A stretch of DNA of 64,000 nt from an uncultured Actinomycetota bacterium. GTDB lineage: Bacteria; Actinomycetota; Actinomycetes; JAFAQI01. Of the stretch, positions 25,545-64,000 are shown piece after piece (the first letter of the stretch is position 1; each line of letters begins with the position of its first letter). The position numbers were made by a program, and so were the translations under genes. The notes under the pieces were generated by a model. It had not been told where the DNA came from. It was given only the letters and a program-made list of their open reading frames with translations, and searched no databases. The DNA is taken from positions 416,001 to 480,000 of the forward strand of contig CAVYQE010000002.1 in the NCBI GenBank assembly GCA_963770565.1. Reading direction: 5' to 3'.

Positions 25545-25546
25545 CG

Positions 25547-40324: not shown

Positions 40325-40337
40325 GCCACCACTTTAC

Positions 40338-40423
40338 GCGGCACCACGATGCGACCTACTAGCGGCACCACGAAAAGGGCGGCTGCATCGGCGCTGATCG
40401 GAAGCGGCACCATGAAAGGGGCG
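40338..40423 (+). repeat. Three direct repeats in the divergent control region
   Basis: GCGGCACCA(C/T)GA at 40338, 40362, 40404; copies 2 and 3 share 19 of 21 bp. Confidence 0.7.
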
Positions 40424-40448
40424 CCGAAGGCTTTCGCGCTGTATCCCG

Positions 40449-40673: not shown

Positions 40674-40674
40674 G

Positions 40675-41522: not shown

Positions 41523-41524
41523 CG

Positions 41525-45455: not shown

Positions 45456-45911
45456 ATGCGACGCGCCACGCTAAACCTCCCGGTCCTGCTGGTAATGGCG
45501 TTCGCTCTCACCGCTGCCGGCTGTAGCGCCGGCACCCCAAAGCCCGCGCCCACCGTAACGCGAACCGTGACTACAAAACCGGTGACAACCAGCGGGGACG
45601 CCGGGACTCTCCAACCAGAGTCCTGCCAACGCGTCTCCAGCGGCGCAGACGGCAACGTTTCCCCGGTGTTATGCCCGGACGGGCACCCCAACGCCTACGC
45701 CATGCCCACCCTGGAATCCACCGCATCAGCGATGTTCTCCCTCGGGGAGTTCGCTACCACTGGCCAGATCGAAAACGCGGCCTGCCGCGACCTCCCCCAC
45801 TCCACCAACCCGATCGAGCAAAGCGCATACCAGTTCATGCAAGCCCTCAACGGATGGCAGTTCGGAATCGACCCCACCGACAACGGACTGTTCTCATACT
45901 GCCAACCATGA
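45456..45911 (+). CDS. Secreted lipoprotein (cargo)
   Basis: Signal peptide, AAGC lipobox, Thr-rich linker, Cys-containing domain. Confidence 0.6.
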   Translation: MRRATLNLPVLLVMAFALTAAGCSAGTPKPAPTVTRTVTTKPVTTSGDAGTLQPESCQRVSSGADGNVSPVLCPDGHPNAYAMPTLESTASAMFSLGEFATTGQIENAACRDLPHSTNPIEQSAYQFMQALNGWQFGIDPTDNGLFSYCQP

Positions 45912-46677
45912 AGCGTGCTGCCCCATCGCTGTCAGCGTGCTGGAACGGCACGTATGGATCACCTACACCACGCGAGGGCGTGCCCACGACGAAACGCTCG
46001 TGCTCCTACGGCGGCGGGGCCACATTTAGGCGCGCAGTCGCGAGCTGTCGCCATAGCCGCCAACGCAGGGCACGTTCTTCGGGCGCGCGTTGTCGCACAG
46101 TTCGACGTAGTTCATGAGGATCATTCGGACAGACGGCGGCGATACAGGCAGCCAGCCATTGGACTGGAGTCACTCACGTAGAGCACATTAAGCGGCCTTG
46201 ACGGCCAGCGTGAAGTATGTAGAGGACAGCTCGACCAAGTGAGCGACGCGCACGACGAGGACAACTTGCGCGTGGAGTTGCACTGTCGCCGGTAACCGGC
46301 ATTGCGACGCGATGGACTGAGAAGTCGCTGCGGTCGCAGTCTCGGCACGGCCCAGGATCCGAGTTCGACGGCAAGCAGGCAATGCAGGGCGTCGCGGCAC
46401 CTAAGGGAACTTCACAGAAGTCGAGTGACGACTGGGCGACGACGCTGCACCACTACAGCGCGGCGACGAGAAGCGTGAGCGAAAGGACCGGCCAAGACGC
46501 GCACTCAGATGCCCGTCAGACGGCGCGCGCAGTTCAGCATCGCGTTCCACAGGGACTTGATGATGACCAGGTGCCTCCGGGCCAACACAAGTAGAAGGTA
46601 ACGCCGGCTAGGTCCGGGTTGGGTGGGGATCTTCAGGGTGCCGGGAGACAGGCTTCCGGCCTGATCTGGAAGGGTCC

Positions 46678-47590
46678 GTGATGACCATGACCGAGCTGTC
46701 TTTGACGACGAGCGACGCGACGCGATTGGCGATGGCGGCGTTCCTGGCCCGCTACCGCGAACCGACCCTCACCGCTTACACGCAAGACCTCGGTCCTACT
46801 CGGCCTGGTGCACCAGCAGTACAACCGGCGAGGTGCTCCATGTCACCCGCGGCCGAGCTTGAGATGTACGTCCGGCAGATGGAGAGCCCGCGGGTACGCC
46901 GCCGCGACGATCGCTCGCCGCTTCGGCACCGTCGCCACCTTCTATAAGTACGCGGTCATCGACGGGCTCATCACGGCCAACCCGGCGGACGCCGTCACGC
47001 GCCCGAAGGATGGCATGGGAGGGGCAGAGGCGCACCGTGCTGCACCCGCTGGAGTTCGCGGCACTGCTGTCCGCTGCCCGCACGTCCAGCCCGAACGACC
47101 ACGCGCTTGTCTGTCTGCTCGGCATGCTTGGTCTGCGCGTCTCCGAAGCGTGCAACGCCGACATCACCGACATCCGGTACGAGTCCGGCTACGAGCTGCT
47201 GCACGTCATCGGCAAGGGCGCCAAGCCGGCCGACATCCCGCTGCCGATCCCGGTTCTGAGAGCGGTGCGGGAGGCGATCGATGGACGCGACGAGCGGACC
47301 GATCCTGCAGCACCCGGACCGGGCGGCGGATGGACCGGCCGGCGCCAGCAGGGCGCTCGTCCGGGTGGCCCGCGCCGCAGGCGATCAGCCACCAGATAAG
47401 CCCGCACGGCCTGCGGCGGACCTTCTGCACCACTGGCCTTGTCGCTGGCATCGCGATCAGAGACATGCAGTACGCGATGCGGCACGCGGACCCGCGTACG
47501 ACCCTGCGGTACGACATGGCCAAGGCCAACCTCGACCGCCACGCGGCGCATGCCGTCGCCGCCTACCTGGCCGGCATGAGCACCGGCTGA
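46678..47590 (+). pseudogene. Tyrosine recombinase/integrase (XerC/D-like), multiple frameshifts
   Basis: GLRVSEA (R), GKG (K), HGLRRT (H-x-x-R), HADPRTTLRY (H...Y) spread over several frames. Confidence 0.88.
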
Positions 47591-47660
47591 GCCCGGACCT
47601 AGCCGGCGTTCTGTCCGCGCCGCTGGGGAACGATTGACCGGCACGGGGCGTCGTATCACC

Positions 47661-48080
47661 ATGAAGACCATGCGAGTGAGGGTTGGATGGGCCGCGTCCG
47701 CCACAGCGGCGGCCGCGCTGGTCGCTGGTTGCACTCACGCAGCCGCGCCCGCTTCGAGCCCTGTCGCCGAACCAACCAGCCCTGCGCTCGGCACTGTCGT
47801 TGGTAGTTTCAGAGCGGGAGCCGGGCCGGATGGTGGCTCGGGCGGCCCGCTACCGGGCGTGGTTACGGTCAGGCTGCACACGATTGGCGGGCGCGTCGTC
47901 GCCTCCGCACACGCCGACACGACCGGCAGGTTCCACTTCGCGCTCCGACCCGGTCGCTACGCATCGAGCGCGATCGCGCTCAAGAAGTTGCCGTGTCATG
48001 TTGGGCCCACGCCTCCCCAGCGTGTCAACGTGGTGGCGGGTCACGTCGCGCGAGTCGTCCTGATCTGCCCCGTTGGGTAG
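47661..48080 (+). CDS. Secreted lipoprotein with carboxypeptidase-regulatory/prealbumin-like domain
   Basis: VAGC lipobox; ADTTGRFHFALRPGRY. Confidence 0.6.
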   Translation: MKTMRVRVGWAASATAAAALVAGCTHAAAPASSPVAEPTSPALGTVVGSFRAGAGPDGGSGGPLPGVVTVRLHTIGGRVVASAHADTTGRFHFALRPGRYASSAIALKKLPCHVGPTPPQRVNVVAGHVARVVLICPVG

Positions 48081-48129
48081 GCACGCCGAAGCGCCGATAC
48101 ATAGCACTCGAACTCGCGGTATGGATCGC

Positions 48130-48735
48130 TCAGCCGCGGAGTTCGGTGTAGGGCGATAGATCGATCAGGTCGCCACGGCAGACGCCGACATTCCTCCTTG
48201 CGATCAGGGATGCCGAGGCCCGCGAAGTTTCGACGCGCAGATCGGCCGAGAGGCTAGCGCCACACTCCGCTCCCCGGTCAACGATGAGATAGGCGTAGGC
48301 GGTGCCGCCCGCCGCGACGGCCACGCTTTCGGAATGGAGTGCGCTCGTGGCGCCAGCGACGATCGGCGGGTATGGCCACCTTGTGGATGGGTGAACGCGA
48401 GTCCATGAACGTGGTGCGGAGGTACGTGTCAGGCGCAGGTACGGGTAGCCCTGGAGTGCACAGGCGCGTCGCGAACGGTTGCGGAATCCGAGGACGTACG
48501 CCGATTCGTGATTGTCGACAACGTGCCCAGTGGCATCCATGGTGATCGCGACCACCGCCGGAGCACACCTCGACAGAGGCGTATCGACGAGGCCAACGGG
48601 TGCCGTTGTCCGGGCCGTCGTGGCCCGTGGCGTCGACGTTGGCGGCGTCTGGGTCGGTCCCGACGCCGATCCCGAGCACCCGGTGAGGAGCCACACCGCG
48701 ACGCATGCGGCCGCCACCGACGTGATGCGCATCAT
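48130..48735 (-). CDS. DUF4232-like lipoprotein
   Basis: LTGC lipobox; FRNRSRRACALQGYP. Confidence 0.7.
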   Translation of the reverse strand: MMRITSVAAACVAVWLLTGCSGSASGPTQTPPTSTPRATTARTTAPVGLVDTPLSRCAPAVVAITMDATGHVVDNHESAYVLGFRNRSRRACALQGYPYLRLTRTSAPRSWTRVHPSTRWPYPPIVAGATSALHSESVAVAAGGTAYAYLIVDRGAECGASLSADLRVETSRASASLIARRNVGVCRGDLIDLSPYTELRG

Positions 48736-48798
48736 GACAGTGTGACGTAGTCAAGCCTCTGAAGGTTGGCTCTCACCAATCGGCTTCTGTACCGCGCG

Positions 48799-50151
48799 AT
48801 AGGTGATGCCATAACGGAGCGGGGCCTCCCGCTCCTGTGAGTACCGCAGGAGACTGCGGTTGCTCATAAACCCACATGGTGAGGGAGGCCACCAATGAGT
48901 GACGGTATCGCTAGGAAGAAGCAGTTCGTCGGCGTCGACCTGCATCTGCACCGGTCGGTGATCGTGCGGATCGACAACCGCGGTCGCGAGCTCGAGTGCG
49001 TGCGGATCGACAACTCTGTGTCCGGCCTTGTCGCTGAAGTGGCGAAGGCTGGGCAGGGTGCGCCGGTCGCGATCGAGGCGACATATGGCTGGTACTGGGC
49101 GGTCGACGCGTTGCAGGCGAAGGGTTTCGAGGTGCATCTCGCGCACCCGTACGGGATGAAGCAGATGCGGAAGCGGCGCCGGGTGAAGACTGACCATGCG
49201 GATGCGCTGGAGTTGGCGCGGCTGATGCGGCTTGGTTCACTGCCGGAGGCCTACATCGCCCCGGTCGAGCTTCGGGAGCTGCGGGAGCTGGTCCGCCACC
49301 GCCAGCAGCTGACGAAGGTCGCGACCTGCAACCAAGGGCGGGATCCGCGCCGGGTTGGCGAAGCACGGGATCCGTCTGCCGGTCAGCAAGCTGAACACGG
49401 TTGCTGGGTCGGATCTGCTCGATGAGCTACGGCTTCCGGGCTACTACGGGCAGCGGCTCGCCGCGCAACGCCGGATGATGATGCTCGTCGAAGACGAGCT
49501 GGCTCGGGTGGAGCGCGAGCTGGACCGTCGGTTGAAGACCGACCCGGACTACCGGCGGCTGCAGAGGATCAAAGGGATCGGTCCGATCCTCGCGGCGGTG
49601 TTCGTCGTCGAGATCGGTGATGTGAGCCGGTTCCGCAACGCGGCCGCGATCACCTGCTGGGCCGGGCTGACTCCACGGGTGCATGAGTCCGACCGGCGCC
49701 GACACGACGGCTCGATCAGCAAGGAAGGCTGCGCCCTGGTCCGGTGGGCCGCAGTCGAATCGGTGCAACGCCAATGCGAACCAGTCATCCGAGCCGTCCG
49801 GGACGACATCCTCGCCCGCCGCGGGAAGAGAGCGAAGAACACCGCGAAAGTCGCCGCCGCCAGGCGGATGCTCGAGGTCGTCTACTACACGCTGCGTGAC
49901 GGTGAGGCCCGTTGCCTGACCAAGCCGGTCGCCGCCGCGTGAACACCGTCAAGACTTCGTGCGGGTCGAAGTAGCGGCATGACCCACCCTCGGGTGCGGT
50001 CGACGAAGTGAATGACCCCACGACCCTGGAACCCAGGGACGCTCGCACGGCTTCATGCTGACCACCACGTCGCGAAGGGATGCCTGACAGCAAACTGGCT
50101 GTCGCCGAGCTCTGCCATTTCAAACTGAAGCCGAACCTGACAACCACATAG
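48799..50151 (+). mobile_element. IS110-family element (DEDD recombinase 48895-49942, frameshift near 49330)
   Basis: GVDLH, IEAT, KTDHADA (RuvC DEDD); GIGPI, WAGLTPRVHES; ends inferred from ATAG at 48799-48802 and 50148-50151. Confidence 0.85.
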
Positions 50152-50372
50152 CGACGCCGGCAACACAGTCTGCGTCAACCACGAGACGGCCTCAACACCG
50201 TTCGTCCTCGCGCTCCGCGCTCCGGGCGCTGCGTGTTGACCCCGCCCCGCGATCGACGCCGCCCTTGATCTGCCGACCATCGCCGAAGAACGCTCAAAAC
50301 AAACAGTTGACGGCCCCACTCCGTTCAGGGATGCCGTTCTCGATCGTTCCCGGCCGGCGGACCTGTCGGTGG

Positions 50373-51636
50373 TTACGAGGCGGGTCGCAGGATGGCGAGG
50401 CCGACGGGGCTGGCGTCGCAGTGGCAGCTGGGCGCGAAGGTGCCGATGATAATGAGTCCCTGTCGTGTCCATACGTCGTCGTACAGTCGAGTGAGGTGGC
50501 GGAGTCGCGGTGCGGGGTACCACGTGCGGCTTGCCGGGTCGTAGGCGGCGACGGCGCCTTCGGCGTCAGGGCCGAAGTCTTGACCACCGAAGCCTTCGCC
50601 GCCCTGGATGCCACTGATCACGCGTCCAGTGACGAGGGCGCTGGCCATGTCGCGACGAACGGTGTCATGTGCAGCGTGGTGGTCCTCGTGGTGCCGAGCC
50701 GGATGAGCTGTGGGTCCGGGTCGATGCCAATCCCGCAGAAGGAGCCGAGCGGGCAGTCCTGGCCAGCGATGAGCTGCTGAGGCCCGAAGCTCTGAGCCGT
50801 GTCGACGGTGACCGGGAGTGTCGGCTGGGGCTGTCTTTCCCAGCGGTCGCCGTCGAGGCGGTAGAGGTGCGCGGTCTCATGCCCGCTGGGATCGTTCGCG
50901 GTCAGGAACGCCCAGATGGAGGTGCCCTGCACGTAAGCGGCGGCGGAGCCAGATACGGAAGGCTGGGCAGCCGGGTCCAGGTCGAGCCGTCGACCCGCAT
51001 CGCCTGGCTGTCGTTCATGACAACCGCAAGCTGCGAGTCGGCGACCACGAGTGCGCCTTTGAGAATCTCGGGCGGGTCGAGCATGGTCCACCGGTTCGTG
51101 GCGGGGTTCAGCTCCGCGTCGTGTCCCCAGTCGTCGATGATGATTGCTCGCGAGCCGGTCCACGCTGCCTGCCAGCCGCCGTCGAGACGCAGCTGGGACG
51201 GCGGTGCCGCGAGCCGCCGCCACTGGCCGGTCTGCAGGTCGTAGAGCGCGACGCCGTCCTGACAGGTCTTCGGCCCGTCGGACAGGACGGCCAGAACGCC
51301 GAAGCTGGTCGACAGCACCTGTGAGATGCACTGCGCGATCGACGTCGGAACCGGGGTGACCTTCGACCAACTCCCGTCAGCGATCTGCTGCGCTGACGGT
51401 CCGGTCAGCCGGGCGGCTGGCACGGTCGGCTTCGCTGCGCTGAACGAGCCTGCGATGTCGACCGCGGCGAGCAAGACGAGTGCAACCAAGGCCGCTGACA
51501 GCACGACCGTGACGGACCGACGAGTCCGGCGCTGGCTGGCAGCGCGGTCGAGCATCTCCCGAACCGGCGCCGGCCCAACCGGGAAGCTCGCGCGCCGCTG
51601 GAGCGCATCGCGCAGCACGGCGAGGGAGTCACTCAT
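50373..51636 (-). pseudogene. Membrane-anchored Kelch/beta-propeller-like protein (probable partner of the adjacent ECF sigma), 2 frameshifts
   Basis: MSDSLAV...TM...YDLQTGQWRRLA, AAWTGSRAII, LNPATNRW, AYDPASRTW across three ORFs. Confidence 0.6.
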
Positions 51637-52123
51637 CGCCGACCTCCATCTCATCGCGTGCCTGATCGACCCGAAGCGCGACAAGCGCACGGTGCGCCCG
51701 CGACTTCACCGTCCCAACCGAACACCGCAGCATTCTCGCGATCTCCGCCTCGCTGCAGTCGCAGTAATAACGAAGCACCACCACCGCCCGCTGCTCCGGC
51801 GGAAGCGCGGACAACGCCCGCTCGAGCACCATCGCCGACTCGACCCCGAGCGCTGCATCCGGCGTTGAACGCTCCGGCATCGATAGCGTCGGCACCTCAC
51901 CACGCCACCTGCGCTGCCCGGCCCGCAGCGCGAGCCTGCTCATCACCGTGCGGGTATAGGCGAGCGGGTCGTCCACCGAGGACCACCGGCGGTAGGTCTT
52001 CAACAGCGCAACCTGCGCGAGGTCCTCACCCGCCGCAGGGTCGGGCGCGAGCAGCCGCCCGGTCCGCACCAGCGCGGCCCACGACGACTCCACAAACCGC
52101 GTGAAGTCCTCGTCGTGGCCCAC
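51629..52123 (-). CDS. ECF sigma factor (SigE-like)
   Basis: EDLAQVALLKTYRRW...LPPEQRAVVVLRYY.D.SEAEIA...SVGTVKSR. Confidence 0.9.
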   Translation of the reverse strand: MGHDEDFTRFVESSWAALVRTGRLLAPDPAAGEDLAQVALLKTYRRWSSVDDPLAYTRTVMSRLALRAGQRRWRGEVPTLSMPERSTPDAALGVESAMVLERALSALPPEQRAVVVLRYYCDCSEAEIARMLRCSVGTVKSRAHRALVALRVDQARDEMEVGDE

Positions 52124-52653
52124 ACCTAATAAGAGCACCGATGGCCCGAAGAAGGTTCCCCAAGACACAGTCCTTCTGCAACGGACTGCGGTCACGACCG
52201 ACCGCCGAGTAAGTGCCGCTACCGTCGGGCACCATCCCTGCCGTTCGGATCGGGGCCGCTAGGTGGAAATGAGGTCAGTAGCGCGTTCCAAACCCCGCCG
52301 CAACCTAATCGGCTCGGCCACCGGCATGGACCATACTGCGTCGAACTGTCGGCAAGTCGCGCAATGGGGATCCGCGCCGCCGTCATGTTCACCGCGGTGA
52401 GCTCGTCCACCGGCCATTGCGAGGTCGAACAGCGCGTCGATGGCTTGCCAGGTCACTCCGTCGCCCTGCACCACAAGGCCGTCTCTCGACCCGAAGTCGT
52501 CGTCCGCCTCGAGAATCCGAGCGGCGTTTTAACGCGCGGCATGCGTGGGTCTCGCGCCCGGTCCGTCCACCAAGAGCATCACGCGCGGCAAGCAACGCGT
52601 CCGATGCGTTGCCTTTGCGGAGGTTCTGCAGTCTGAGATAGCGGGACGGCATG

Positions 52654-53346
52654 TCAGCGCCAGTCCGAGCCTGACAGGTTCACACTCGCTGCGCCGTATA
52701 TGTCATCGAAGGTGATCCCACCGAAGTTGATCGCGTTGAGACGCCTCGTGGTGTAGTCGACCGTCACGACCTGTTGCAGTTTCGTATCTCCGAGGTTGTT
52801 CGTCTCAGGGAAATATCCGAAGATCCCGACCTCGCGCAACATTGGATAGTCGCTTTCGTAGGTCTTGATGATCTGGAGCATGTTGTAGACATCTTCCTTC
52901 GCCCCGCCGGTCCGAAGACCCTGCGTCAGGTTGTCCTGGATCAAGAAGGGCACCGACAGGAACCGACCGCTGTACTTCAGGCGGACGATCCGTGGCGAAC
53001 CGGCGTAGATTCGACTTCCCTAGCTTGTTCAAAGGGTGGCTTTGAGCGATGTTGGCGCACTCGGCGATGAGGCTCCAGGTGGCGAAGTCGAGGGCCCGGG
53101 CGATGACGAGGACTTTCCATTAGGGCTGACCGCGTTGCCGATAATGCCGACGACCGCTAGCACTGCCACAACGGTGAGAACAACGGACCATGCGGGATGG
53201 CGCTTTACCCAGGACCGCGAGTCCCCTGGCCAGAAGTTCCAACCTTCCAGTGGCGGGCCCCATGACGGATCGGGGGTCCAGCCGGCCGGTGGCGACCAAC
53301 CAGGCGACGGCGAAGCCGGCCAGTTCGGCGGAGGCGTCCAAGCCAT
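52654..53346 (-). pseudogene. Membrane protein with N-terminal PPPNWP/PW-rich motif, frameshift near 53030
   Basis: MAWTPPPNWPASPSPGWSPPAGWTPDPSWG, TM, continuing in ORF 52654-52953. Confidence 0.55.
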
Positions 53347-53536
53347 GGGGCGGACCATAGACCCTGGCGGGGACGATAGACCCAGGGGAATGATCCGATG
53401 CCGACCACACCCAACTCAGTTGCGCCCGCACACGCACTCCACCGTTTTGGACGCGTGGGGCTAGCGCCTGCCGTAGCTATTCCATGCTGGGTCCCTGCCG
53501 CCGCTGGGGCTCGTCTGCTCGTCGGTGCCAGCTGTT

Positions 53537-54877
53537 TGAATCGCCCTGGGTTGCTTGGAGGCTCCAGACCTTGGAAACGAGGATGGAGTCATGGGGAACG
53601 AAGGCACACCGGGAAGCCGACTACGCGTCGGTACTCACCGGAGGAGAAGGCGCAGGCGGTCCGGTTGGTGCGTCAGCTGCGCAAGGAGCTCGGGCACCGA
53701 GCACGGGACGGTCCAGCGGGTCGCCGAGCAGCTCGGCTCGGGGTGGAGTCGTTGCGGTCTGGGTGAAGCAGGCCGAGATCGATGACGGTCGAGCCGGGCA
53801 CGACGACCGTCGGAGGCGAAGCGGATCAAGGAGCTCGAGCAGGAGAACCGGAGCTGCGGCGGGCGAACGCGATCTCTGAAGTCGGCGTCGGCTTTTTTCG
53901 CGGCGGAGCTCGACCGCCCACAGAGGTGATGGTCGCGTTACATCGACGAGCACCGCGACGAGTTCGGAGTCGAGCCCATCTGCCGCACGTTGCAGGTGGC
54001 TCCGAGCACGTACTACGCGGCGAAGTCCCGGCCGCGTCGTCGGCGCGGGCGGTGCGCGACGCGGTGATGATGCAGGTCCTGATGGTGTTGTGGGTCGCGA
54101 ACCGCAAGGTCTACGGGGCACACAAGCTCTGGAAAGCGGCCCGCGGGCCGGCCATGACATCGGCCGGGATCAGGTCGCCCGACTGATGCGTGAACTGGCC
54201 ATCGAGGGCGTCTCCCGACGCCGCAAGAAGGTGTTCACCACCCGGGCCGATCCCGACGCGATCCGAGCGCCGGATCTCGTCAACCGGAACTTCACCGCCG
54301 ACCGGCCCGACGCGTTGTGGGTCACCGACCTGACCTATGTGCCGACCCGGTCGGGGATGGCGTACGTGTGTTTCATCGTCGACGCGTTCACCCGCCGCAT
54401 CGTTGGCTGGCGGGTCGCGTCGAACATGCGCACCGCGATGGTCCTGGACGCGCTCGAGATGGCCCGCGACGATCCCGCGGCGGGAAACGATTCGTCGGGC
54501 TCGTGACCCATTCCGATGCCGGCGTCGCAATTCACGTCGGTGCGGTTCACGGAGCGACTCGACGAGATCGGCGCACGCCCATCGATCGGCACCGTCGCCG
54601 ATTCGTACGACAACGCGCTGGCTGAGACGACCAACGGGCTCTACAAGACCGAGTGCGTCTACGGACCCGACACCAACGGCTGGGACGACGTCGACGAACT
54701 CGAACTCGCGACGCTGTCATGGGTGCACTGGTTCAACGACGACCGCCTCCACAGCCACTGCAACGACATGCCACCCGCAGAGTTCGAAGACAGCGTTCTA
54801 CGCTGCGCTCGACAGACCGACCAGCGAGGCGGTTGGAATCCAATAACCCGAGCCTCCATCAGACCCAGGGCGATTCA
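53537..54877 (+). mobile_element. IS3-family insertion sequence (orfA/orfB, many indels), 1341 bp
   Basis: TG...CA ends; IRs TGAATCGCCCTGGGT...GGAGGCTC; 3-bp TSD GTT (53534-36, 54878-80); DDE motifs WVTDLTY, HSDAG, DNALAET. Confidence 0.93.
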
Positions 54878-54935
54878 GTTCGGGGGCTGTTGTTCGTTTG
54901 GGTGGCCCTTCTTTTGGCCCTTCCCATCCCTTCCC
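54878..54935 (-). repeat. Right terminal inverted repeat (58 bp)
   Basis: Exact reverse complement of 35110-35167. Confidence 0.96.
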
Positions 54936-54950
54936 GCACTTCGTGCCGGT
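54936..54950 (+). repeat. Right 15-bp target-site duplication
   Basis: GCACTTCGTGCCGGT. Confidence 0.95.
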
Positions 54951-55072
54951 GGGAAGGGATGGGAAGACAGAAACCCCAACACCAGCCACCGACGGAGCAA
55001 GGCCCGGAGCCGGCCTCCCAACCCCTGGCATAGGCACCCCTACAACGGAGCCCCACGCGTCCAGAACGGTGG
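54951..55072 (+). mobile_element. End of a second, related casposon-like element (other end not in window)
   Basis: Starts with the same 16-bp terminus GGGAAGGGATGGGAAG; 55049-55072 matches the reverse complement of 53439-53462 at 23/24 nt. Confidence 0.72.
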
Positions 55073-55092
55073 CGAACAGAGGGGTGAACCCT

Positions 55093-56697
55093 TCAGGGCC
55101 TGGCCGCCGCTTCGGCTGAGAGGTTCAGCGGCGCCGCGCTGGCCACGGCCGACGGGTCGACTCGCCACTCCTCTGGGTGCGTGTCGACGTACAGCTCAAC
55201 GGCGTTGCCGTCGGGATCCGAGACGATGAGCGCCTTGCTCACCCGAAAGTCGAACGCCGCGTGCACAACAACACCCTTGGCATCTAGTGTCGCGCGTCAT
55301 TAGTTCCTTTACATTGGGGTGAGTTCGCGTCATGCTGTGGCATGGCGCTGTTGACTGCAGGTGTGCAGATCCCTGAGGCGGACCGGGCGACGCTTCAGAG
55401 CTGGTCTCGGTCGACGTCGATCAAGGCCGGGCTGGTGACTCGGGCCAGGATCGTCCTTGCTGCCGGTGACGGCTTGGGCACGACCTCGATCGCTTCGAAG
55501 CTTGGGGTGTCCAGGCCGACGGTGATCCAGTGGCGTGAGCGGTATGCCGCCGAAGGCTTGGCCGGGCTGCAGGACGATCCGCGGTCGGGTCGGCCGAAGA
55601 CGGTCGACGACGCGGCGATCCTGGCGATGACGCTCGACCCGCCGCCGGAGCGCCTTGGGGTGACGCACTGGTCCACCCGCCTGCTGGCGGCGGAGCTGAA
55701 GGTCGGCGATGCGACCGTGGCGCGGACGTGGCGCAAGTACTGCGTGCAGCCGTGGCGGCGCGGGACGTTCAAGTTCAGCACCGACCCTGAGTTGGTGGCG
55801 AAGGTCCACGACGTCGTCGGCCTCTACCTGAACCCGCCGGAGAAGGCAGTCGTGCTCTGCGTCGATGAGAAGAGCCAGATCCAGGCACTCGATCGGACCG
55901 CCCCGATCCTGCCGATGCGCCCAGGGCTGCCGGAGAAGGCCACCCACGACTACAAGCGCAACGGCACCGCGACCTTGTTCGCCGCTCTAGAAGTCGCGAC
56001 CGGCAAGGTCACCGACGCCGTCTATGAACGGCACGGAAAAGCCGAGTTCCTCGCGTTCATGAAGCAGGTCGCGAAGGCCTACCCGCGACGTGAGCTCCAC
56101 GTCGTGCTGGACAACTACCACACCCACAAGCACACCGAAGTCCAAGCCTGGCTAGCGAAGAACCCTCGCGTCACCTTGCACTTCACACCCACATCGGGGT
56201 CGTGGATGAACATGGTCGAGATCTTTTTCGGGATCATCACCCGCCAAGCGATCCGGCGCGGCAGCTTCGCCAACGTCAAAGAACTCATGGTCGCGATCAG
56301 CCGCTTCATCGACGGCTGGAACAACCGCTGCCACCCATTCACCTGGACAAAAACGGCGGACGAGATCCTGCCTCACGCCACCCGTCAAGCAACTTCAGAC
56401 GCGCGACACTAGGTCGGCTTTGGCCGCAACGAGCTCGTCCACGGTGTCGCCGATCTTGAACGCGAAGTGGTGCAGCCCGATCGGCCCTCCAGGCCCGTCC
56501 GCATCGCCCTGGACCAAGGCGAGGTCGTGGTGGTTGTCGCCCGTCGACAGGAAGACCATCAGACCTTCGCCGAACTCGCCTCGGCCCACTTCCCGCAGCC
56601 CAAGCACGTCGCCGTAAAACGCCAGCGAGTCCTCGACGTCGCGCACCCGCAGCACGACGTGCCCGACCTTCGAGATGCGGAAACTTGCGCTCGTCAT
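55093..56697 (-). pseudogene. VOC/glyoxalase (catechol dioxygenase-like) gene interrupted by IS630
   Basis: VGHVVLRV...HHDLAL...GLHHFAF | AKGVVV...DPDGNAVELY; removing the IS restores one reading frame. Confidence 0.88.
55284..56412 (+). mobile_element. IS630-family insertion sequence, intact transposase 55342-56412
   Basis: CTAG at both ends; IR CTAGTGTCGCGCGTC / GACGCGCGACACTAG; CVDEK, VLDNY.TH, SWMNMVE (DDE). Confidence 0.95.
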
Positions 56698-56848
56698 CGG
56701 TCTCCGTTCGCACCCGGACGGAACGGCCTGACATTACCGCAGGTTCGTGCCCGTTCCCATATCGCAAGTACCGCTCTTAGGCGGCGAAGCTCTGGCGCCT
56801 CGAGGTGGCGTCCCTTGTCGGTCTGAACGTCAGGAGACCGTCGGCTCG

Positions 56849-57928
56849 TCATGTGAGATCAAGCGCCCGGCTCCGACCTTCGTCGCTACTCAGGGCCGCC
56901 TCGTCGGATGGTGGGTTCAACTTTGGGACGGTCGCCAGGGTGATCGCGAATCGGCAGCCATTGTCGGTGTTGGTGGCGTCGATCGTGCCACCGTGCGCTT
57001 GAACGATCGCGCGGGCAATCGCCAGCCCCAGGCCGGCGCCTCGGTCGGGTACCGGCGTACGCGCGGCACCGCCTCGGAACGCGATGTCGAATACTCGGGC
57101 AAGGTGCTCGTCAGGGATCCCGCCGCACTCGTCCTGCACGGCAATCACCGTCTGGCCGGCGGCAACGCGATTGGTGATCAGGATCGTGCCGCCGGGCGGT
57201 GTGTGTTGGATGCCGTTGGATAGCAGGTTGCGCAGCACCCGGTCGAACTCGTCGGCATCGACCTCGACGGTGGCCTCGACGACTTCGTCGGCGATCCGGA
57301 TCTGCCTCGCAGCGGCGAGAGCGGACGCGGTCGGCAGTGCCTGCGCGACGAGGTCGGTGACGGCGATCTGCTCACGCTGCAAAGTCAGAGTGCCGCTGTG
57401 CAGGCGCGCGAGCTCGAACAATCCGTCGACCATCGCGGTGAGCCGGACCGACTCGTCGCGGATCCCGCGGTGGTAGCACCCGACCGTTTCCTCGTCGGTG
57501 ACGACGCCGTCCTCGAGGGCCTCCGCCATCGCACGGATACCCGCGATTGGTGTGCGCAGGTCATGTGACATCCACGCGACCAGCTCGCGACGGTTGGCTT
57601 CGGCGGTGCGATCGGACTCGTACCGTGCGACCGCTTGTGCACTCGCCTTGATCGTCGAGGTCACCCCGCGGCCGACGCCGTACGCGCATGTGCCTGCGAC
57701 CAGCGCCGAGACGATCACGACGACGACCAGCACCGCGCTGTCATGGGCGGTGATAGTCATCGTCTCGGCGGCGGCGATGACCCCGGCAATGGTGGACAGG
57801 GTGGCGACCGCGACCGTGGCGACGATCAAGGCAGAGCTGACCCGGCGGCGCAACAGCCAGACCGCTGCCGCGCACGCGAGGCCGGTGACCAAAGCAGCGG
57901 TAGCGGAGATCACGATCATGTGCGTCAT
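56849..57928 (-). CDS. Sensor histidine kinase
   Basis: Two TMs; [27 protein letters not shown]. Confidence 0.92.
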
Positions 57929-58617
57929 GGCGGATCGGCCGGCTCGTATCGATAGCCGACACCCCAGACCGTGAGCAGCCGGGCTGGCCGGCCCGGATCG
58001 GCTTCGATCTTCTCCCGCAACCGGCGGACGTGAACGGTGACGGTGGACACGTCACCGAAGCTCCATCCCCACACTCGCTCGAACAACTGCTCCCGGCTGA
58101 ACGCGGTCTGGGGATGACGTACGAGGTAGGAGAGCAGGTCGTACTCGCGTGCGGTGAGCCAGACCACCTCGCCGTCCTTGGTGACCTGGTGCGCCGCGTC
58201 GTCAATGACCAGGTCGCCGTCGACCAGGCGAGTGTCGCTCCTCGCGACCAGCGGACCGGACGCGCGCCGCAGTACGGCCTCGACACGGAGCGCGAGCTCC
58301 CGCGGGCTGAACGGTTTCGTCACGTAGTCGTCGGCACCGAGCTCGAGGCCTGCGACCCGGTCGGTCTCGTCGCTGCGGGCCGTCAGCATGATGACCGGAA
58401 CCGGCCCGGCCTCGCGGAGCCGGCGGCAGACGTCGAGGCCGGACATCGAGGGAAGCATCAGGTCGAGCACGACCAGATCAGGTGCGTGTGCAAAGGCCCA
58501 CTGCAGGGCGCGCAGGCCATCGCCGATTACTTCGACGTCGTGACCGTCACGAATGAGGTAGCGCGCGACGACGTCGCTCACGGTCGGATCGTCATCGACG
58601 ACAAGGACATGCCCCAC
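57925..58617 (-). CDS. OmpR-family response regulator
   Basis: [39 protein letters not shown]. Confidence 0.94.
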
Positions 58618-58736
58618 AGGTCGAGGTTAGGCGCCCAGGCGGGATCCCCAAAGCCCGTTAAGGATTCCGTAAGCGGTGACGGACAACGGAGGGGACGGCA
58701 GCTGTCCGCTGCCGCCCCCTCCGTCAGGTTGGATCG

Positions 58737-59927
58737 TCAGTTCACCACGATGCCGGCCGGAGCGACCGAGCCGGGCACGGTCACCGGTGCGCCGGCAAGC
58801 GGGGTGAGGTTGCCGCCATCCACTCGGAAGCCGCTGATCGTCGCGGCACCACCATCGACGACGTACAACTTGTGGCCGCCTGGCGAGAGTCGCAGGTCGA
58901 TCGGACCCTTCTGCGTGGTCGGGTCGAGTGCGGTGCTGCCGATCAGGGTCATCGACCCGTTGGGCGCGATCGAGTAGCGCGAGATGCTCGGTACGGCGGT
59001 GTTGGTCGTGAACAAGAACCTGCCGTCGTGGCTGATCTCGACCCAGCACGGCGCGGTCTGGTTATCAGCGAAGGGGCCGGCGCCGATCGAGGTCAAACTG
59101 CCGTTGCGCGAGACAGCGAAGGCCGAGATCGTGCCGTTGTTCGGTCCGCCGTGCGCGTTCGAGACGAACAGCTGGCTGGGATTGGTGGGTCGGAACTCCG
59201 ATCCGAGCGGGCCGGGGCCCTGCGCGGCGTACGGCGAGCCTGGCGCGGCATAAAGCAGGCCGTTGCGGCCCACGTTGAAGCTGTCGACCAGCGAGGTGGC
59301 GACCCGGGTACCGACCACGGACGTGCCGGTCGAGTTGAACAGCACATCACCGAGCTGCGAGCCGTCGGGCACCGCGACCGTCGACTCGGCGAGGTGACGC
59401 AACATACCCGCGCGGTCGAGCACGAAACCGGTGTAGTTGCCCCCGGAGTAGCCGTTGTTGGGATCGCCGGCGTTGGCGACATAGACCAGCTCGTCACGAC
59501 CCCAAGGGGTGATCGCGATGCTGACCGGCGAGCTGCCGTGCGAGGAGACGGTTCCGCCGACAACGCGATGTGGAACGCCCGACCCACTGAAACGGAGCAC
59601 CGAGATTTGGTCGCTGCCCGCATCGACTGCGAGCAGGAACCGGCCGTCAGGGGTTTCTTGGAGGGCGCCTTGCGATGCCGTCCCCGCGCCAGAGCCGTTG
59701 CCGCCCGTGCTGTACGGCGATCCCGCTTCTGGCGTCAAGGACCCGTCGGCATGCCGGTCGAAACCGCCGATCGTGTTGCCTACCGCGGTGTTGTCGTTCA
59801 CGTAGACATGCCCGACGACCGGTGAGGCGTGAGGTGCGACGGCCTGCGCCGCCACGGCCGGACCAGCCAGACCCAGCGTGACGACACCGCCCAGGATGGC
59901 TGCAAACTTGAAGGATTTCACGGGCAA
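58737..59927 (-). CDS. Secreted lactonase-family 7-bladed beta-propeller protein
   Basis: Signal peptide; repeats TPDGRFLLAVDAGS, SHDGRFLFTTN, SPGGHKLYVVD; AAGGAG RBS. Confidence 0.8.
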   Translation of the reverse strand: MPVKSFKFAAILGGVVTLGLAGPAVAAQAVAPHASPVVGHVYVNDNTAVGNTIGGFDRHADGSLTPEAGSPYSTGGNGSGAGTASQGALQETPDGRFLLAVDAGSDQISVLRFSGSGVPHRVVGGTVSSHGSSPVSIAITPWGRDELVYVANAGDPNNGYSGGNYTGFVLDRAGMLRHLAESTVAVPDGSQLGDVLFNSTGTSVVGTRVATSLVDSFNVGRNGLLYAAPGSPYAAQGPGPLGSEFRPTNPSQLFVSNAHGGPNNGTISAFAVSRNGSLTSIGAGPFADNQTAPCWVEISHDGRFLFTTNTAVPSISRYSIAPNGSMTLIGSTALDPTTQKGPIDLRLSPGGHKLYVVDGGAATISGFRVDGGNLTPLAGAPVTVPGSVAPAGIVVN

Positions 59928-60156
59928 TCTCCTTAGGTTCAGGGGCCGGCCAATCCGCCGGCACTAACCCAGGAGGTACACCCGTGCGAGGCCCCGGACA
60001 GCGACCGTGATCGTCTGTTCAGAACCTCGTAAGAAGCCTTACGAACCGTGGCAGCGGGCTACTCGCCCGGGTTGGTTGTGACGACGACCGAGCCGTGCAA
60101 GGGTTCGCTACGCCCGACAGGCAGGAAACCTGCAACGACCAGGGAGGGAGTCGGCA

Positions 60157-60426
60157 GTGATTGCGATCTACATCACCACCGAGAACATGACGGCGGCGCA
60201 ACATGCCGAAGGACGCAAACGCCTTAAGGGGGCCGGCGCTTCGGAAGATGCCATGAAGCTGCACTCGGTGTTCGGCGAGGAAGGCAAGCTGCAGGTATTC
60301 GACATCTGGGAGAGCCAAGAAGCGTTCGACGCGTTTCTCGGATACCTGGTGCCCATCCTCGAAGACTTGGGCATCAGCTTGAGCTCGCCGCCGACCGTGA
60401 TGCCTGTCGTCGATCTCGTTCAGTAG
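60157..60426 (+). CDS. Small hypothetical protein (dimeric alpha/beta barrel-like)
   Basis: GGGAG RBS; LH...G...VFDIWESQEAFDAF. Confidence 0.65.
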   Translation: MIAIYITTENMTAAQHAEGRKRLKGAGASEDAMKLHSVFGEEGKLQVFDIWESQEAFDAFLGYLVPILEDLGISLSSPPTVMPVVDLVQ

Positions 60427-60567
60427 GCACGGCTCGCGCAACAAAGGCAGGCTCCACGGAGGGGATCGCGCCCGCCACGCTGGCGCCGACGCTCAACGCC
60501 CCCACGGCATGGGCACATCTGCCACCGAACCCACGCGTCAAGGACAGAGGCGGCTTGCGCTGACTTT

Positions 60568-62364
60568 CTACGCTTGCGCGGGAACGCTGTACTTCTTGCT
60601 GTCCTGGAACGGGTCCTTGCTGAATAGGCCTTCGGCGTTGGTGCCCGCGCCCCAGTAGTCGACCCCGCCGGAGGCCGTGACCGCGTAGTAGCCGAGGCCG
60701 CCGACCTTGTCCACTGCATCGGCGACCAGGCTGGCCACCCCGCGCAGGGATCCCTTCCCGTTCGTGCTCACGACGGCGGCTGGCGTCTTGCTGCACGCGG
60801 TGTTGTCGCAGCTGTCTGGCCCGGTGATCTCTCCGTCGCCAAGTTGGGCGCCGGTGTTCTCACCCCAGCAGTCCACTCGGCCGGAGGTGAGCACTGCACA
60901 AAACCCCAGGCCAGTGGTGGCGAGATGGGTCACGCCGCTGAGGTTTCCGGTCCCGCCAGCGCCGGCGACCGGCTCCGGATAATTCTCCGCAGTCACGGGT
61001 AGCGTCTTCAAGCCGAGCTGCCCGACCTGGCCGTCTCCCCAGCAGTCCACCTGACGAGACTTGAGGAGGGCGCAGGCCGTGCCGCTGTCGCCCACGACGT
61101 CCGCGACGCCGCTCAGAAATCCAGTCCCTCCGACACCTTCCACTTGCACGGGAGCGTCGCTCGCCGATGTGCTGGCGCCCGCGCCGAGCGGGCCGAACCC
61201 CCAGCAGTCAACCCCGTCAGAGGTGAGCACCGCGCAGATCACGCCGCCTTCGGCGCTCAACTTGGCGACCCCGCTGAGCGTGCCGGTACCGCCGACACCC
61301 TCGACCTTGACCGGTGTGTCGCTGGAGTCGTCGCTCGTGCCGAGCGGATTCCTGCCCCAGCAGTCCACGGCGGACGAGGTCAGGAGCGCGCACATCCCGT
61401 TGCCGTTGCCGACGACGCTCGCGACTCCGCTGAGCGTGCCGCTTCCGCCGACCCGCTTGACCGCCTCGACCTTGTTACTGAAGGTTGCAGTTGAGCCAGT
61501 GCCGAGTTGGCCATACGAGTTGTTTCCCCAGCAGTCCACCCCACCGGCCTTGAGAACTGCGCAATAGCTGAAGGCGCCGCCGACCACGCTTGCTACTCCG
61601 GTCAGCTTCCCGCTGCCGCCGATGCCTTTGGCCGCCACCGGGTAGGCGGGCTGGATTGGGCTGGCGTTACCGAGATCCCCGTCGCTGTTGTCGCCCCAAC
61701 AGTCGACCGCGTTGGACTTGAGCACGCCACAGAAGCCACCGCCGTCGGTGGCAATGCTCTTCACGCCGGTCAGTACGCCGTGCCCGCCGATAGCTTTGAC
61801 CGGCACCGGCTTGTAGAGGAACTCGCTGGCGACTCCACTGCCGAGGTTGTCAGAGACGTTGTAGCCCCAGCAGTCCACCTTGCCGGAGTTGAACAGTGCA
61901 CATGAATCATTGGAGTTGGTGACAACGGTCTTCACGCCGGTCAAGAAGCCGGAGGTCGTTGTGGCGGTGATCTTCGCCACCCTGCCGTATTTGCCGGTCG
62001 TGGTGTAAGCGAATACCGCGAAGGAGTATTTCGTCGAGCGCGCGAGACCCTTAGCCGTCACGGTGTGCGCAGGCTTGTGAACCTTCGCGACAAGGTGGCC
62101 CTTCTTCGGAGTGGCTGGCGCCTTGGATCCCTTGGCGTAGCGCACGATCGTTCCCGCGAACTTGGCAGACGAAGGATTCTTCCAGGACAGCGACACCGAC
62201 GATGCGGTTCGCTTGGTCACCTTCAGCGACTGCACCGACTCGAGCGATCTCGCGCCCCGGCCGACCAGATGTGTGCTACCCGGCAGCGCGACGGCTGGCG
62301 CGCCAACACCGAGGCAACAGATAACAGCTGTGCCGATCGTGGTGAGCATGCGGCGCCGCGACAT
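60568..62364 (-). CDS. Secreted FN3 + RCC1-repeat beta-propeller protein
   Basis: Signal peptide; VSLSW...GLARSTKYSFAVFA (FN3); about 7 repeats of C(A/G)VL..G.VDCWG.N..GQLG. Confidence 0.85.
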   Translation of the reverse strand: MSRRRMLTTIGTAVICCLGVGAPAVALPGSTHLVGRGARSLESVQSLKVTKRTASSVSLSWKNPSSAKFAGTIVRYAKGSKAPATPKKGHLVAKVHKPAHTVTAKGLARSTKYSFAVFAYTTTGKYGRVAKITATTTSGFLTGVKTVVTNSNDSCALFNSGKVDCWGYNVSDNLGSGVASEFLYKPVPVKAIGGHGVLTGVKSIATDGGGFCGVLKSNAVDCWGDNSDGDLGNASPIQPAYPVAAKGIGGSGKLTGVASVVGGAFSYCAVLKAGGVDCWGNNSYGQLGTGSTATFSNKVEAVKRVGGSGTLSGVASVVGNGNGMCALLTSSAVDCWGRNPLGTSDDSSDTPVKVEGVGGTGTLSGVAKLSAEGGVICAVLTSDGVDCWGFGPLGAGASTSASDAPVQVEGVGGTGFLSGVADVVGDSGTACALLKSRQVDCWGDGQVGQLGLKTLPVTAENYPEPVAGAGGTGNLSGVTHLATTGLGFCAVLTSGRVDCWGENTGAQLGDGEITGPDSCDNTACSKTPAAVVSTNGKGSLRGVASLVADAVDKVGGLGYYAVTASGGVDYWGAGTNAEGLFSKDPFQDSKKYSVPAQA

Positions 62365-62534
62365 CAGGAGTCTCCTCTGGCCAAGGTGATGAGCACCCGA
62401 GTTAAACACCGCCCAGCGGGCGACCGCAGCCGAACGTTGACACATATGGGCTAGAGAGACCCGCAAAGCTATGAATGTCCGGCTCGAACCGCATCGGGTT
62501 GGGCCAAGCCTCCCGGGGACGCACCGTCTCGGAC

Positions 62535-62560
62535 GTCCACGTCCACGTCCACGTCCACGT
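62535..62560 (+). repeat. Short tandem repeat (GTCCAC)x4
   Basis: cgtccacgtccacgtccacgtccacgt in the intergenic region. Confidence 0.7.
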
Positions 62561-62650
62561 CGAACTCGGCTCGTCACGATTCGCGCTCGGCCTGCGCGCT
62601 CATCGTCGATCTGTTGCTTGGCAACGGCGAGTGCCTGGCTAGCAGGACGC

Positions 62651-64000
62651 TCAAGCGCCTCGCACCAGTGGGGCTACCACGGCGTCCTGGCCAGGATCGG
62701 GTACGGCTCGCGGGCCGGGGAGCGGTGGCTGGGGGATGCTCGGTCGCCTGCGAGCGAGTTTGGACGGCCACCAGATCGCATCGCCGATGTCGAGGTTGAT
62801 CGCGGTGACCAGGACCGAGCGGACGACAAGTGTGTCGAGGAGGACGCCGAGCGCGACCGCGAAGCCGATCTCGGTGAAGGTGGTCAACGGAAGCGTTGCC
62901 AGTACGGCGAACGTCCCCGCAAGCACCAGGCCGGCTGAGGTAATCACTCCACCCGTTACGGCCAAGGCGGTCCGTGCCCCGGTCCGGGTTCCGGCCCGAG
63001 CCGATTCCTCGCGTACCCGGGTCATCAGGAAGATGTTGTAGTCGATGCCGAGGGCCACCAAGAAGACGAACACGTAGAGCGGTAACGCGCTCTCGGCTCC
63101 GCCGTACCCGAAGAAATGTTTGAAGATCACGGCGCTGATGCCCAGCGATGCAGCGAACGACAGCACCACGGTGGCAACGAGGATCAGCGGCGCGAGGAGC
63201 GCGCGTAGGAGGACGGCCAGGATGCCGAACACGACGAGCAGGATGATCGGGATTACCAGGTTCCGGTCGTGGTGCGCGGCCCGCTCGATATCGAGGGTGA
63301 TCGCGCTGTTGCCGCCGACTTGTGCATCTGCCGCCGGCACCGCATGGACCGCCGCGCGCACGCGGTCGACGGCTGCATACCCGGCTGAGCTGTCCGGTGC
63401 GGACGTCGTCGTCGCCTGGATGAATGCCTGTCCGGAGCGAACGACTGGCCGAGAGATCATGGTCAGGCCCGGCACCGAAGCGACCGCCGCTCGCACTTGT
63501 GCGCGCTCGGCAGCGTTCGAGATGACGATGATCGGGCTGCCCGCTCCGGCCGGGAAGTGCTGGGCGAGCAATTGCTCACCGATGACCGCAGCGGGCCGGC
63601 TGGTGTAGGACTCGGCGTTGGTCAGCCCGTTCGCGTCGAGGTCCACGAGGCCGATGGCCATGACCGCGAGCGCGAGCGCGGTGAACACCCAGACCCGTCG
63701 CGGACGTCGAGCGATCCGGGCGCCCATCCGCGCCCATCCGCCGGTGGGGGTCGGATCGACCGAGCCGAACGAGGGCCGCTTGGGCCAGAAGATCCAGCGC
63801 CCGAGGATCACGAGAAGTGCGGGCAGCAACGTCACCATCGCCATCAGTGAAACGACAACGCCGATCGCGGCGACCGGCCCGAGATCCTTGGTCGAGTTCG
63901 TTTCGGCGGCGAGCAAGCAGAGCATGCCGATGCTCACCGTGCTCGCACTTGCGACCAGGGCCGGCCCGGCGCGACGCAATGCGATCGCCATGGCGTCATG
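62651..64000 (-). CDS. MMPL/RND family transporter, C-terminal part (start beyond window)
   Basis: ALGIDYNIFLMTRVREE, TGGVITSAG.VLAGTF, GVLLDT.VVRS. Confidence 0.92.
   Translation of the reverse strand, partial: HDAMAIALRRAGPALVASASTVSIGMLCLLAAETNSTKDLGPVAAIGVVVSLMAMVTLLPALLVILGRWIFWPKRPSFGSVDPTPTGGWARMGARIARRPRRVWVFTALALAVMAIGLVDLDANGLTNAESYTSRPAAVIGEQLLAQHFPAGAGSPIIVISNAAERAQVRAAVASVPGLTMISRPVVRSGQAFIQATTTSAPDSSAGYAAVDRVRAAVHAVPAADAQVGGNSAITLDIERAAHHDRNLVIPIILLVVFGILAVLLRALLAPLILVATVVLSFAASLGISAVIFKHFFGYGGAESALPLYVFVFLVALGIDYNIFLMTRVREESARAGTRTGARTALAVTGGVITSAGLVLAGTFAVLATLPLTTFTEIGFAVALGVLLDTLVVRSVLVTAINLDIGDAIWWPSKLARRRPSIPQPPLPGPRAVPDPGQDAVVAPLVRGA

Follow-up and report, generated by a model that had tools for sequence, protein, structure and literature searches.

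A solitary casposon-type end behind a Cas1-encoding element at a tRNA-Arg gene of an uncultured actinobacterium, probably the remnant of an earlier insertion

The 64,000-nt stretch of actinobacterial DNA analysed here (the window; positions 416001-480000 of contig C2 of the source genome, G000) carries, in this order, a tRNA-Arg gene, a target-site duplication (TSD), a 19.8-kb casposon-like element encoding a Cas1 protein (element 1, E1), a second copy of the TSD and a stub of ~128 nt that is related to the ends of E1. Its GC content and Pfam families such as MMPL and DUF4232 agree with an actinobacterial host. We consider this stub to be probably a remnant of the solo terminal inverted repeat (solo-TIR) type, left by an earlier casposon-like element that was related to E1 and distinct from it and that used the same tRNA-Arg(CCT) target; the genes downstream of it would then not be cargo. 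The original prediction for this locus had placed a whole second element, inverted, behind the right TSD. Its order of parts and the orientation of the second end are retained here, and the second element itself is reduced to the stub. The target site and the ends comprise the following features:

35025-35098, plus strand: tRNA-Arg gene (anticodon CCT), found with ARAGORN
35095-35109, plus strand: tRNA-proximal copy of the TSD, 15 nt, found by repeat search
35110-54935, no strand assigned: E1, a Cas1-encoding casposon-like element of 19.8 kb with 67-nt TIRs, delimited with repeats, Pfam and relatives
54869-54935, minus strand: right TIR of E1 (inverted repeat I1)
54936-54950, plus strand: distal copy of the TSD, common to E1 and the orphan end, found by repeat search
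54951-55078, plus strand: orphan (solo) end, E2L, of a second related element, ~128 nt, found with repeats, alignment and profile

The 15-mer GCACTTCGTGCCGGT occurs at 35095 and 54936, its first copy overlapping the final 4 nt of the tRNA-Arg(CCT) gene, and the 16-mer GGGAAGGGATGGGAAG occurs at 35110 (plus strand), 54920 (minus strand) and 54951 (plus strand). Counted in the window at up to two mismatches, the 16-mer is present three times for 0.03 copies expected, a number that none of 100 shuffles reached. Joined together, the 15-mer and the 16-mer form a perfect 31-nt direct repeat (family D11 of the repeat finder, 35095-35125 and 54936-54966), and the TIRs of E1, 67 nt long and 94% complementary (35110-35176 and 54869-54935), have their outer edges flush with the 15-mer. 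The duplicated 15-mer is host sequence, since in a genome of another genus (G014) a 14/15 match to it lies behind the tRNA-Arg gene without any TIR and is followed by unrelated sequence. The tRNA-Arg(CCT) of the relatives is identical to the window copy, and the 3' part of this gene is presumed to be the leader-like recognition region for integration.

The exact 16-mer restarts at 54951, directly after the right TSD, as had been predicted with all coordinates correct. The stub consists of this 16-nt terminus (54951-54966) and a more distant stretch that includes a subterminal motif (55049-55072), and it lacks ~30 nt after the terminus that are present in both E1 ends and in the end found in G003, the closest genome, which represents a sister species with 91% identity over the flank upstream of the tRNA. 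Aligned with the right end of E1, from which the inserted IS3 copy and one copy of its duplication had been removed, the stub agreed at 102 of 122 aligned positions, with the gap of ~30 nt just after the 16-mer; the score of 77 compares with a mean of 40.9 (sd 6.7, maximum 69.5) for 300 shuffles that kept the 16-mer. Past the 16-mer, the local score was 43 against the right end of E1 and 27 against the left end, for a shuffle mean of ~19 (19.2 for the right end; sd 2.5-2.9). These values bear out the earlier observation that the stub follows the right subterminal region of E1 after such a gap, and they support its assignment as a putative right-type end in opposite orientation to E1, for which a few dozen nucleotides are informative.

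The inverted match between 55049-55072 and 53439-53462 (I20) was also recovered as first described, with 23 of 24 nt identical (96%). At up to one mismatch, this 24-nt motif occurs genome-wide only in the right end of E1 and in the stub; its 11-nt core is also present in the left end of E1 and, by arithmetic that corrects for the IS3 copy, lies ~100-130 nt from the terminus in all three ends. When four ends (both those of E1, the stub and the G003 end) were combined into a profile, it recovered the stub over 54951-55078 with an E-value of 1.1e-14. The terminus of the stub is identical to that of E1 at 16 of 16 positions and the remainder shows 20 mismatches in 122 aligned positions, together with indels. 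In G003, the sequence behind the tRNA-Arg gene (G003:C362, locus L037) begins with a different 15-mer (11/15), followed by the same 16-mer at an unchanged offset from the tRNA, after which it diverges; ~50 nt resemble the E1 ends, and unrelated open reading frames (ORFs) without family matches lie beyond. This is the only 16-mer copy in the G003 assembly (92% complete, ~550 contigs), in which no casposase was found. Because its first 16 nt are perfect and the rest has diverged, with the G003 end behaving likewise, the stub fits an end from a distinct member of the family, its terminus presumably under constraint, and not a decayed copy of E1. Query positions 1-142 (54936-55077, which include the stub) were matched in none of the 40 relatives searched; the tally of relatives comprises 41 genomes, among them the unpublished G032 and G040, on which no specific claim rests. 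What stands behind E1 is one casposon end at a casposon target, with neither casposon genes nor a partner end, as in a solo-TIR.

Two inverted ends, each with its TSD, would be expected of a whole element 2, of which one end only was found. Throughout the 4.43-Mb assembly, no 16-mer occurs at up to two mismatches beyond the three known copies, and the two extra hits obtained at up to four mismatches in C2:470900-495000 were at chance level, neither of them beside a TSD-like site. The sole exact third copy of the 15-mer in the whole assembly lies on contig C1 in an unrelated context. Searches with nhmmer, run with filters off and with the four-end profile, the stub and the right end of E1 as queries, revealed no fourth end genome-wide; the hits were the three known ends (the right end of E1 in two pieces) and one additional match at E 3.4. 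The matching end and third TSD that had been foreseen beyond 64 kb were thus found neither there nor elsewhere in the assembly, and the second cas1 or polB did not materialise either. The Cas1 family search of the genome detected E1 and a copy on contig C1 (313.7 bits), which is taken to be a putative conventional CRISPR Cas1; no second casposase-type cas1 was found, and PF03175 and PF00136, the models for DNA polymerases of family B (PolB), matched nothing genome-wide at E <= 0.1. Between 54951 and the window-equivalent position 74200 (positions beyond the window are given in its numbering), there are no casposase or polymerase genes that an element 2 could call its own; compared with E1 and 12 related loci, this stretch gave no blastn hit and, with tblastx, only weak scattered hits, and no casposon gene remnants were detected in 55-74 kb. 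The locus resembles a tandem array in that its shared TSD has an element end on each side, the second member not being a whole element.

Candidates for a distal boundary were also discarded. A 12/15 match to the TSD at window-equivalent 72879, with synteny resuming 1.3 kb further on, belongs to a dispersed palindromic repeat (G000:C2:488850-488946, window-equivalent 72850-72946), which is nested, intergenic, ~90 nt long and yields 133 BLAST hits here. This repeat has dozens of copies in G003 and looks like a repetitive extragenic palindromic (REP) sequence or a miniature inverted-repeat transposable element (MITE). A MITE-like reading of the stub, with a degenerate partner end in 55060-55115, was dropped as only 6 nt matched by eye.

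The DNA that follows the stub had been attributed, from 55 to 64 kb, to the cargo of the second casposon. It contains the following features:

55125-55285, minus strand: 3' part of a glyoxalase/VOC-family gene, host DNA (homology with G003; stop codon placed by eye)
55286-56410, plus strand: IS630-family insertion with a TA duplication, which splits the glyoxalase gene (inverted repeat I17, DDE_3 transposase)
56411-64000, minus strand: chromosomal genes, comprising the 5' part of the glyoxalase gene and genes for a histidine kinase, a response regulator, a lactonase-like protein, an fn3/RCC1-repeat protein and an MMPL transporter (Pfam)

These are ordinary chromosomal genes, and no mobile-element core gene was detected with Pfam in 56411-64000. 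The series continues up to window-equivalent 74.1 kb with an ArsR-type regulator, an S41 peptidase, a PQQ-repeat protein, a GGDEF protein, an ammonium transporter and a membrane protein of the LPG-synthase TM family. Most of this 55-74 kb block is also present in G003, where it is spread over three contigs with 86-92% nucleotide identity and where the glyoxalase gene is not interrupted by the IS630-family element (which encodes here a DDE_3 transposase of 356 aa between 29-nt inverted repeats). Homology with G003 starts at 55093 according to BLAST and at ~55080 in a global alignment, within ~15 nt of the end of the stub. In that global alignment the start of the G003 glyoxalase contig bears a weak likeness to the stub, which was rejected as not above chance (321 of 1000 shuffles scored as high as the first 62 nt of the contig). 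The genes between 55.1 and 74.1 kb probably belong to the chromosome, in a variable region that lies downstream of the tRNA, and not to the cargo of a second casposon. The original prediction had named two observations that would overturn it, of which one was made, namely that no matching end or third TSD exists downstream, and the other was not, namely that the 55-64 kb DNA directly follows the tRNA in element-free relatives: G004 and G002, which lack the interior of E1, have 3.6 and 2.2 kb of other DNA, respectively, between the tRNA and the gene found here at window-equivalent 74.2 kb. As a side observation, the fn3/RCC1-repeat gene (60568-62577, minus strand) contains 5-6 diverged tandem units of ~165 nt at 60856-61951.

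It seems unlikely that element 2 was a whole casposon, old or non-autonomous, with ~19 kb of cargo from 54951 to ~74.1 kb and with an eroded right end and distal TSD. The 19-kb block is extra relative to G004 and G002 (where the tRNA lies 2-3.6 kb from the 74.2-kb gene), it starts exactly at the casposon end and its GC content is slightly low. However, no right end, even a degenerate one, was found in the 156-nt intergenic stretch that closes the block or elsewhere, and the block carries no cas1, no polB and no remnants of E1-family genes. In addition, G003 holds it at core-like identity, with a flank by the glyoxalase gene that is unlike the stub, and matches to its genes in G001, G002 and G004 are scattered over several different contigs instead of forming one unit. 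Beyond the indel relative to G004 and G002, nothing positive speaks for such an element.

An origin of the stub within the lineage of E1 itself appears to us quite unlikely. An earlier copy would have left one end behind by imprecise loss, and the element or a sibling would then have re-entered the tRNA-proximal copy of the target. The stub and E1 do have the same terminus, subterminal motif and target, and MetMaz-C1 has been reported to form tandem structures by re-integration into its original target site in vivo (PMC10359463). Nevertheless, the absence of ~30 nt and the differences at 20 of 122 positions, next to 16 intact terminal nucleotides, suit a distinct relative better, and the excision of MetMaz-C1 described in the same report left clean empty sites without TIR remains. 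Were this the origin of the stub, the main picture would remain unchanged.

The resident element E1 has three of the four features that define casposons, the fourth failing as far as the tools used can see. The features relevant to its identity are:

37791-39383, minus strand: Cas1-family casposase candidate, 530 aa, intact (PF01867, TIGR00287)
41519-44431, plus strand: large conserved partner gene of the casposase, ~1040 aa in homologues (tblastx conservation, frames)
53537-54877, plus strand: IS3-family insertion in the right subterminal region of E1, with a 3-bp GTT duplication (I3, rve domains)

Its Cas1-family protein was recognised by PF01867 (E 3.7e-35, 121.9 bits) and by TIGR00287 (93.4 bits for a cut-off of 71.7), has an intact frame with 99% coverage to homologues and finds its best PDB sequence matches in the Cas1 chains 4n06 and 6opm. 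In the family alignment (A1), the E/H/E catalytic-type columns are invariant, and the protein carries a CxxC...CxxC block towards its C-terminus and a conserved C-terminal region. The TIRs (67 nt at 94%) and the perfect 15-nt duplication flush with them agree with the ~14-15 bp TSDs of casposons. PolB is a defining casposon gene. In addition to the genome-wide result given above, no PolB match was found with Pfam among the scanned E1 ORFs or among the eight ORFs scanned against NCBIfam, and E1 showed no HNH family match.

Divergent from cas1, the plus-strand ORF block 40552-44892 has no family match in Pfam or NCBIfam and is conserved beside cas1, according to tblastx, in the related loci L068, L070, L071, L072 and G245:C1 (~288668-290032). 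The large-protein homologues measure 1011-1118 aa, and the protein ends in a helix-turn-helix (HTH) followed by a Cys-rich tail. Positions 41519-44431 of E1 align to these homologues piecewise, in no fewer than four segments that lie in different frames; barring indel errors in the assembly, E1 probably carries this gene as a pseudogene. Neither alone nor as a profile did the large protein yield a PDB sequence match to any polymerase, its AlphaFold model (7 sequences) was unusable (mean pLDDT 44.9), and the leads provided by the protein atlas stayed below threshold (0.88 and 0.86), the clusters concerned having a PolB family in 31% and 15% of their members. The large protein may be the replication protein of this family, with PolB identity as a mere candidate.

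The other E1 genes recognised with Pfam include a Fic-domain gene and an NYN-domain gene on the tRNA side, a sigma-70/ECF gene, a DUF4232 gene and a Kelch-motif ORF, as well as an IS110 transposase (48895-49942) and a tyrosine-recombinase (Phage_integrase) domain (46808-47590, with a piece at 47010-47399), each of them split over two frames. Frameshifts seem to be concentrated in E1, the neighbouring host genes looking intact, and the IS3 transposase occupies more reading frames than the two that are customary. A public sequencing run (X1) contains short, low-depth contigs that are identical or near-identical to parts of E1. The contigs of the four runs compared with 35023-55022 were short and of low depth, and none was reported that bridges the tRNA side to the stub across E1, making them uninformative on an E1-free allele.

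The family to which E1 belongs is a real mobile transposon family, and a rare one. Only 35 relatives of the casposase at E <= 1e-5 were present among the candidates scored in a collection of 5.8 billion proteins, nearly all of them metagenomic and some named from metagenome-assembled genomes (MAGs) of Acidimicrobiales. No homologue was found in the 35 other genomes of the same taxonomic family, and only two of 400 other genomes of the class have one; a genome-contig collection, searched with the casposase alone and with alignment A2, returned no relative. The interior of E1 was not found in G001-G004 or G014, where only IS-like pieces and the end were matched. A genome of another family of the same class (G245) carries a 12-kb element (C1, ~281133-293134; L080+L081, joined positions 16133-28134) with the same gene pair, a cas1 homologue and a large-protein homologue, bounded by perfect 43-nt TIRs starting with GGGA and by a 14-bp direct duplication, away from any tRNA. 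This pattern of TIRs and duplication is the signature of transposition with cuts staggered by 14-15 bp, as known for casposases. A metagenomic relative of the casposase (L070) is encoded ~3.6 kb from a tRNA-Lys(TTT) gene, and a G/A-rich sequence (7380-7404) lies there a few bases past the tRNA 3' end, at a distance from cas1 similar to that in E1, suggesting that tRNA targeting is common in the E1 family.

It is very improbable that the 31-nt repeat is the attachment site of a tyrosine-recombinase island, with the third 16-mer as part of attR. In favour of such an island, the perfect direct repeat begins in the tRNA 3' end, E1 contains the Phage_integrase pieces mentioned above, and integrase-type scars seem to occur at tRNA-Arg in other relatives. 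In G005 (contig C92, locus L013; another genus), a partial duplicate of the tRNA-Arg 3' end just downstream of the tRNA looks like the scar of integrase-type islands at this same gene, the flank of which is variable and has served elements of several kinds. However, an island of this type would have an intact integrase near its att repeat and no flush inverted ends, whereas the integrase of E1 is split over two frames and located in the middle of the element, 12 kb and 7 kb away from its ends. The island would also account neither for the 67-nt, 94% inverted repeat flush with the 15-nt duplication nor for the homology that the stub shows past the repeat, in its subterminal part, and the homologous cas1 element of G245 has TIRs and a 14-bp TSD. 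Just as hard to credit is that the 16-mer and what follows are native host sequence resembling, or mimicked by, the element terminus: although the identity covers only 16 nt and no partner end was found for the stub, a 16-mer with an expectation of 0.03 copies per window stands precisely after the TSD, the stub motif occurs otherwise only at the right end of E1, the TSD-like site of G014 runs into unrelated sequence, and 54936-55077 is matched nowhere in the 40 relatives searched.

Several observations nonetheless weigh against the stub being the solo end of an earlier element at this target. PolB was not detected in E1, and the role of the E1 Cas1 as an integrase stays putative. E1 is itself decayed (the large gene, the integrase, IS110 and IS3 are frameshifted) and, therefore, calling it the newest insertion, as the original prediction did for the element next to the tRNA, means only that it would be newer than the stub. 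No genome was seen with an intermediate arrangement, that is, tRNA, TSD and a full older element, or tRNA, TSD and the stub without E1. G003 is too fragmented in this respect, its tRNA and glyoxalase contigs, between which no overlap was found, ending before they can be linked. Finally, G004 and G002 lack the 55-74 kb block on the stretch that links the tRNA to the 74.2-kb gene, so that it represents an insertion or a deletion relative to them, and its GC content (0.665, for a genome mean of 0.684) falls in the 13th percentile of 19-kb windows; an element may conceivably have brought it.

With the stub as a solo end, we infer the following history. By analogy with studied casposases, the Cas1-family integrase would recognise the 3' part of the tRNA gene and the adjacent 15 bp, nick both strands 15 bp apart and join the 3' ends of the element to the target, after which gap repair would duplicate the 15 bp. 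An older related element would first have sat at the tRNA, and E1 would later have entered the tRNA-proximal copy of the 15-mer, duplicating it; such an entry would be possible because what is recognised lies on the side of the tRNA. Only the first ~128 nt of the older element would have survived, the rest, its distal TSD included, having since been lost. For the A. boonei casposase, the minimal target has been described as 18 bp at the 3' end of tRNA-Pro together with the 15-bp TSD segment, downstream sequence being dispensable, and an upstream entry of new casposons, with one TSD unit between elements, was predicted from it (Beguin et al. 2016, PMC5137440). The layout of the present locus, if interpreted correctly, would fit this upstream-stacking model exactly: the TSD has 15 bp as in A. 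boonei, and the newer element is expected on the tRNA side (PMC5137440).

The closest parallels come from methanogenic archaea. In Methanosarcina, tandem casposons sharing one TSD at tRNA-Leu genes, as well as solo-TIRs, have been described (Krupovic et al. 2016, PMC4779613), and the remark of the original prediction that tandem casposons are known in this genus was correct. The solo-TIRs of M. mazei resemble the stub in that one TIR match lies at the target site, beside sequence of the target type and without casposon genes; in that description they are read as degraded full elements. They differ from it in that the host is here a high-GC bacterium, the end stands directly behind a resident full-length element with which it shares the TSD, and the family is characterised by a 530-aa Cas1 with a zinc-finger-like block and a ~1040-aa protein (PMC4779613). 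Methanosarcina sp. 2.H.T.1A.3 and its relatives likewise have a tRNA 3' end as target and a single TSD unit between elements, and in the tRNA-Leu pairs one of the two copies is inactivated, which may be likened to the decay seen here; by comparison with those tandems, the second member is here a ~128-nt stub without genes, second TIR or distal TSD, and the right-type ends face each other, the elements being apparently opposite in orientation (PMC4779613). A deteriorating second element beside a resident casposon was also reported in Methanolobus psychrophilus R15 (Krupovic et al. 2014, PMC4046053), although in that case, as presented there, genes remain and the TIRs are unidentified, whereas one end and no genes remain here.

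Bacterial hosts, an actinobacterium included, are known for the family 3 casposons of Streptomyces albulus CCRC 11814 and Nitrosomonas sp. AL212 (PMC4046053). The S. albulus casposon, listed in 2014, runs counter to the original statement that it knew of no actinobacterial case. The Cas1 of NitAL212-C1 is described as fused to zinc-binding and HTH domains, and that of E1 has the CxxC...CxxC block and the conserved C-terminus; in contrast to family 3, E1 has no PolB or HNH family match, the comparison being one of features (PMC4046053). The accumulation of Tn7-type elements, a parallel drawn in both surveys, is similar in that one site is reused and older copies decay into an island, with a different transposase family and a different target logic (PMC4046053, PMC4779613). 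We found no bacterial tandem or solo casposon end in print; the supplementary tables of Krupovic 2014 and 2016, which lay outside our search, may record such cases. The stub with its shared TSD is a bacterial example of a kind already described in archaea, and the analogy with CRISPR is also already in print.

We tentatively entertain a broader interpretation, in which the tRNA-Arg locus would be a bacterial record of polarised, leader-proximal stacking by Cas1 (tRNA, 15-bp repeat, element, 15-bp repeat, solo end), that is, of the repeat-insert-repeat intermediate proposed on the way from casposons to CRISPR arrays. It would have been preserved in a rare family, no member of which is described in the literature searched, in which the partner of the casposase is a conserved ~1040-aa protein and not a PolB that can be recognised as such. 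This E1 family, which is seldom met in genomes and combines a Cas1 with an unknown large protein, without any PolB that could be detected, is in fact more unusual than the stub. In practical terms there is less to gain, namely a defined target (15 bp and the 3' end of tRNA-Arg) and equally defined ends for an uncharacterised bacterial casposase, together with a warning for annotation that the genes at 55-74 kb are not to be counted as mobile-element cargo. If the history proposed here is true, Methanosarcina would not be alone in having Cas1 transposons that use one target on the tRNA side repeatedly and decay there to solo ends; the same process would operate in a high-GC soil bacterium, which would widen the base from which CRISPR arrays may have grown at such sites.

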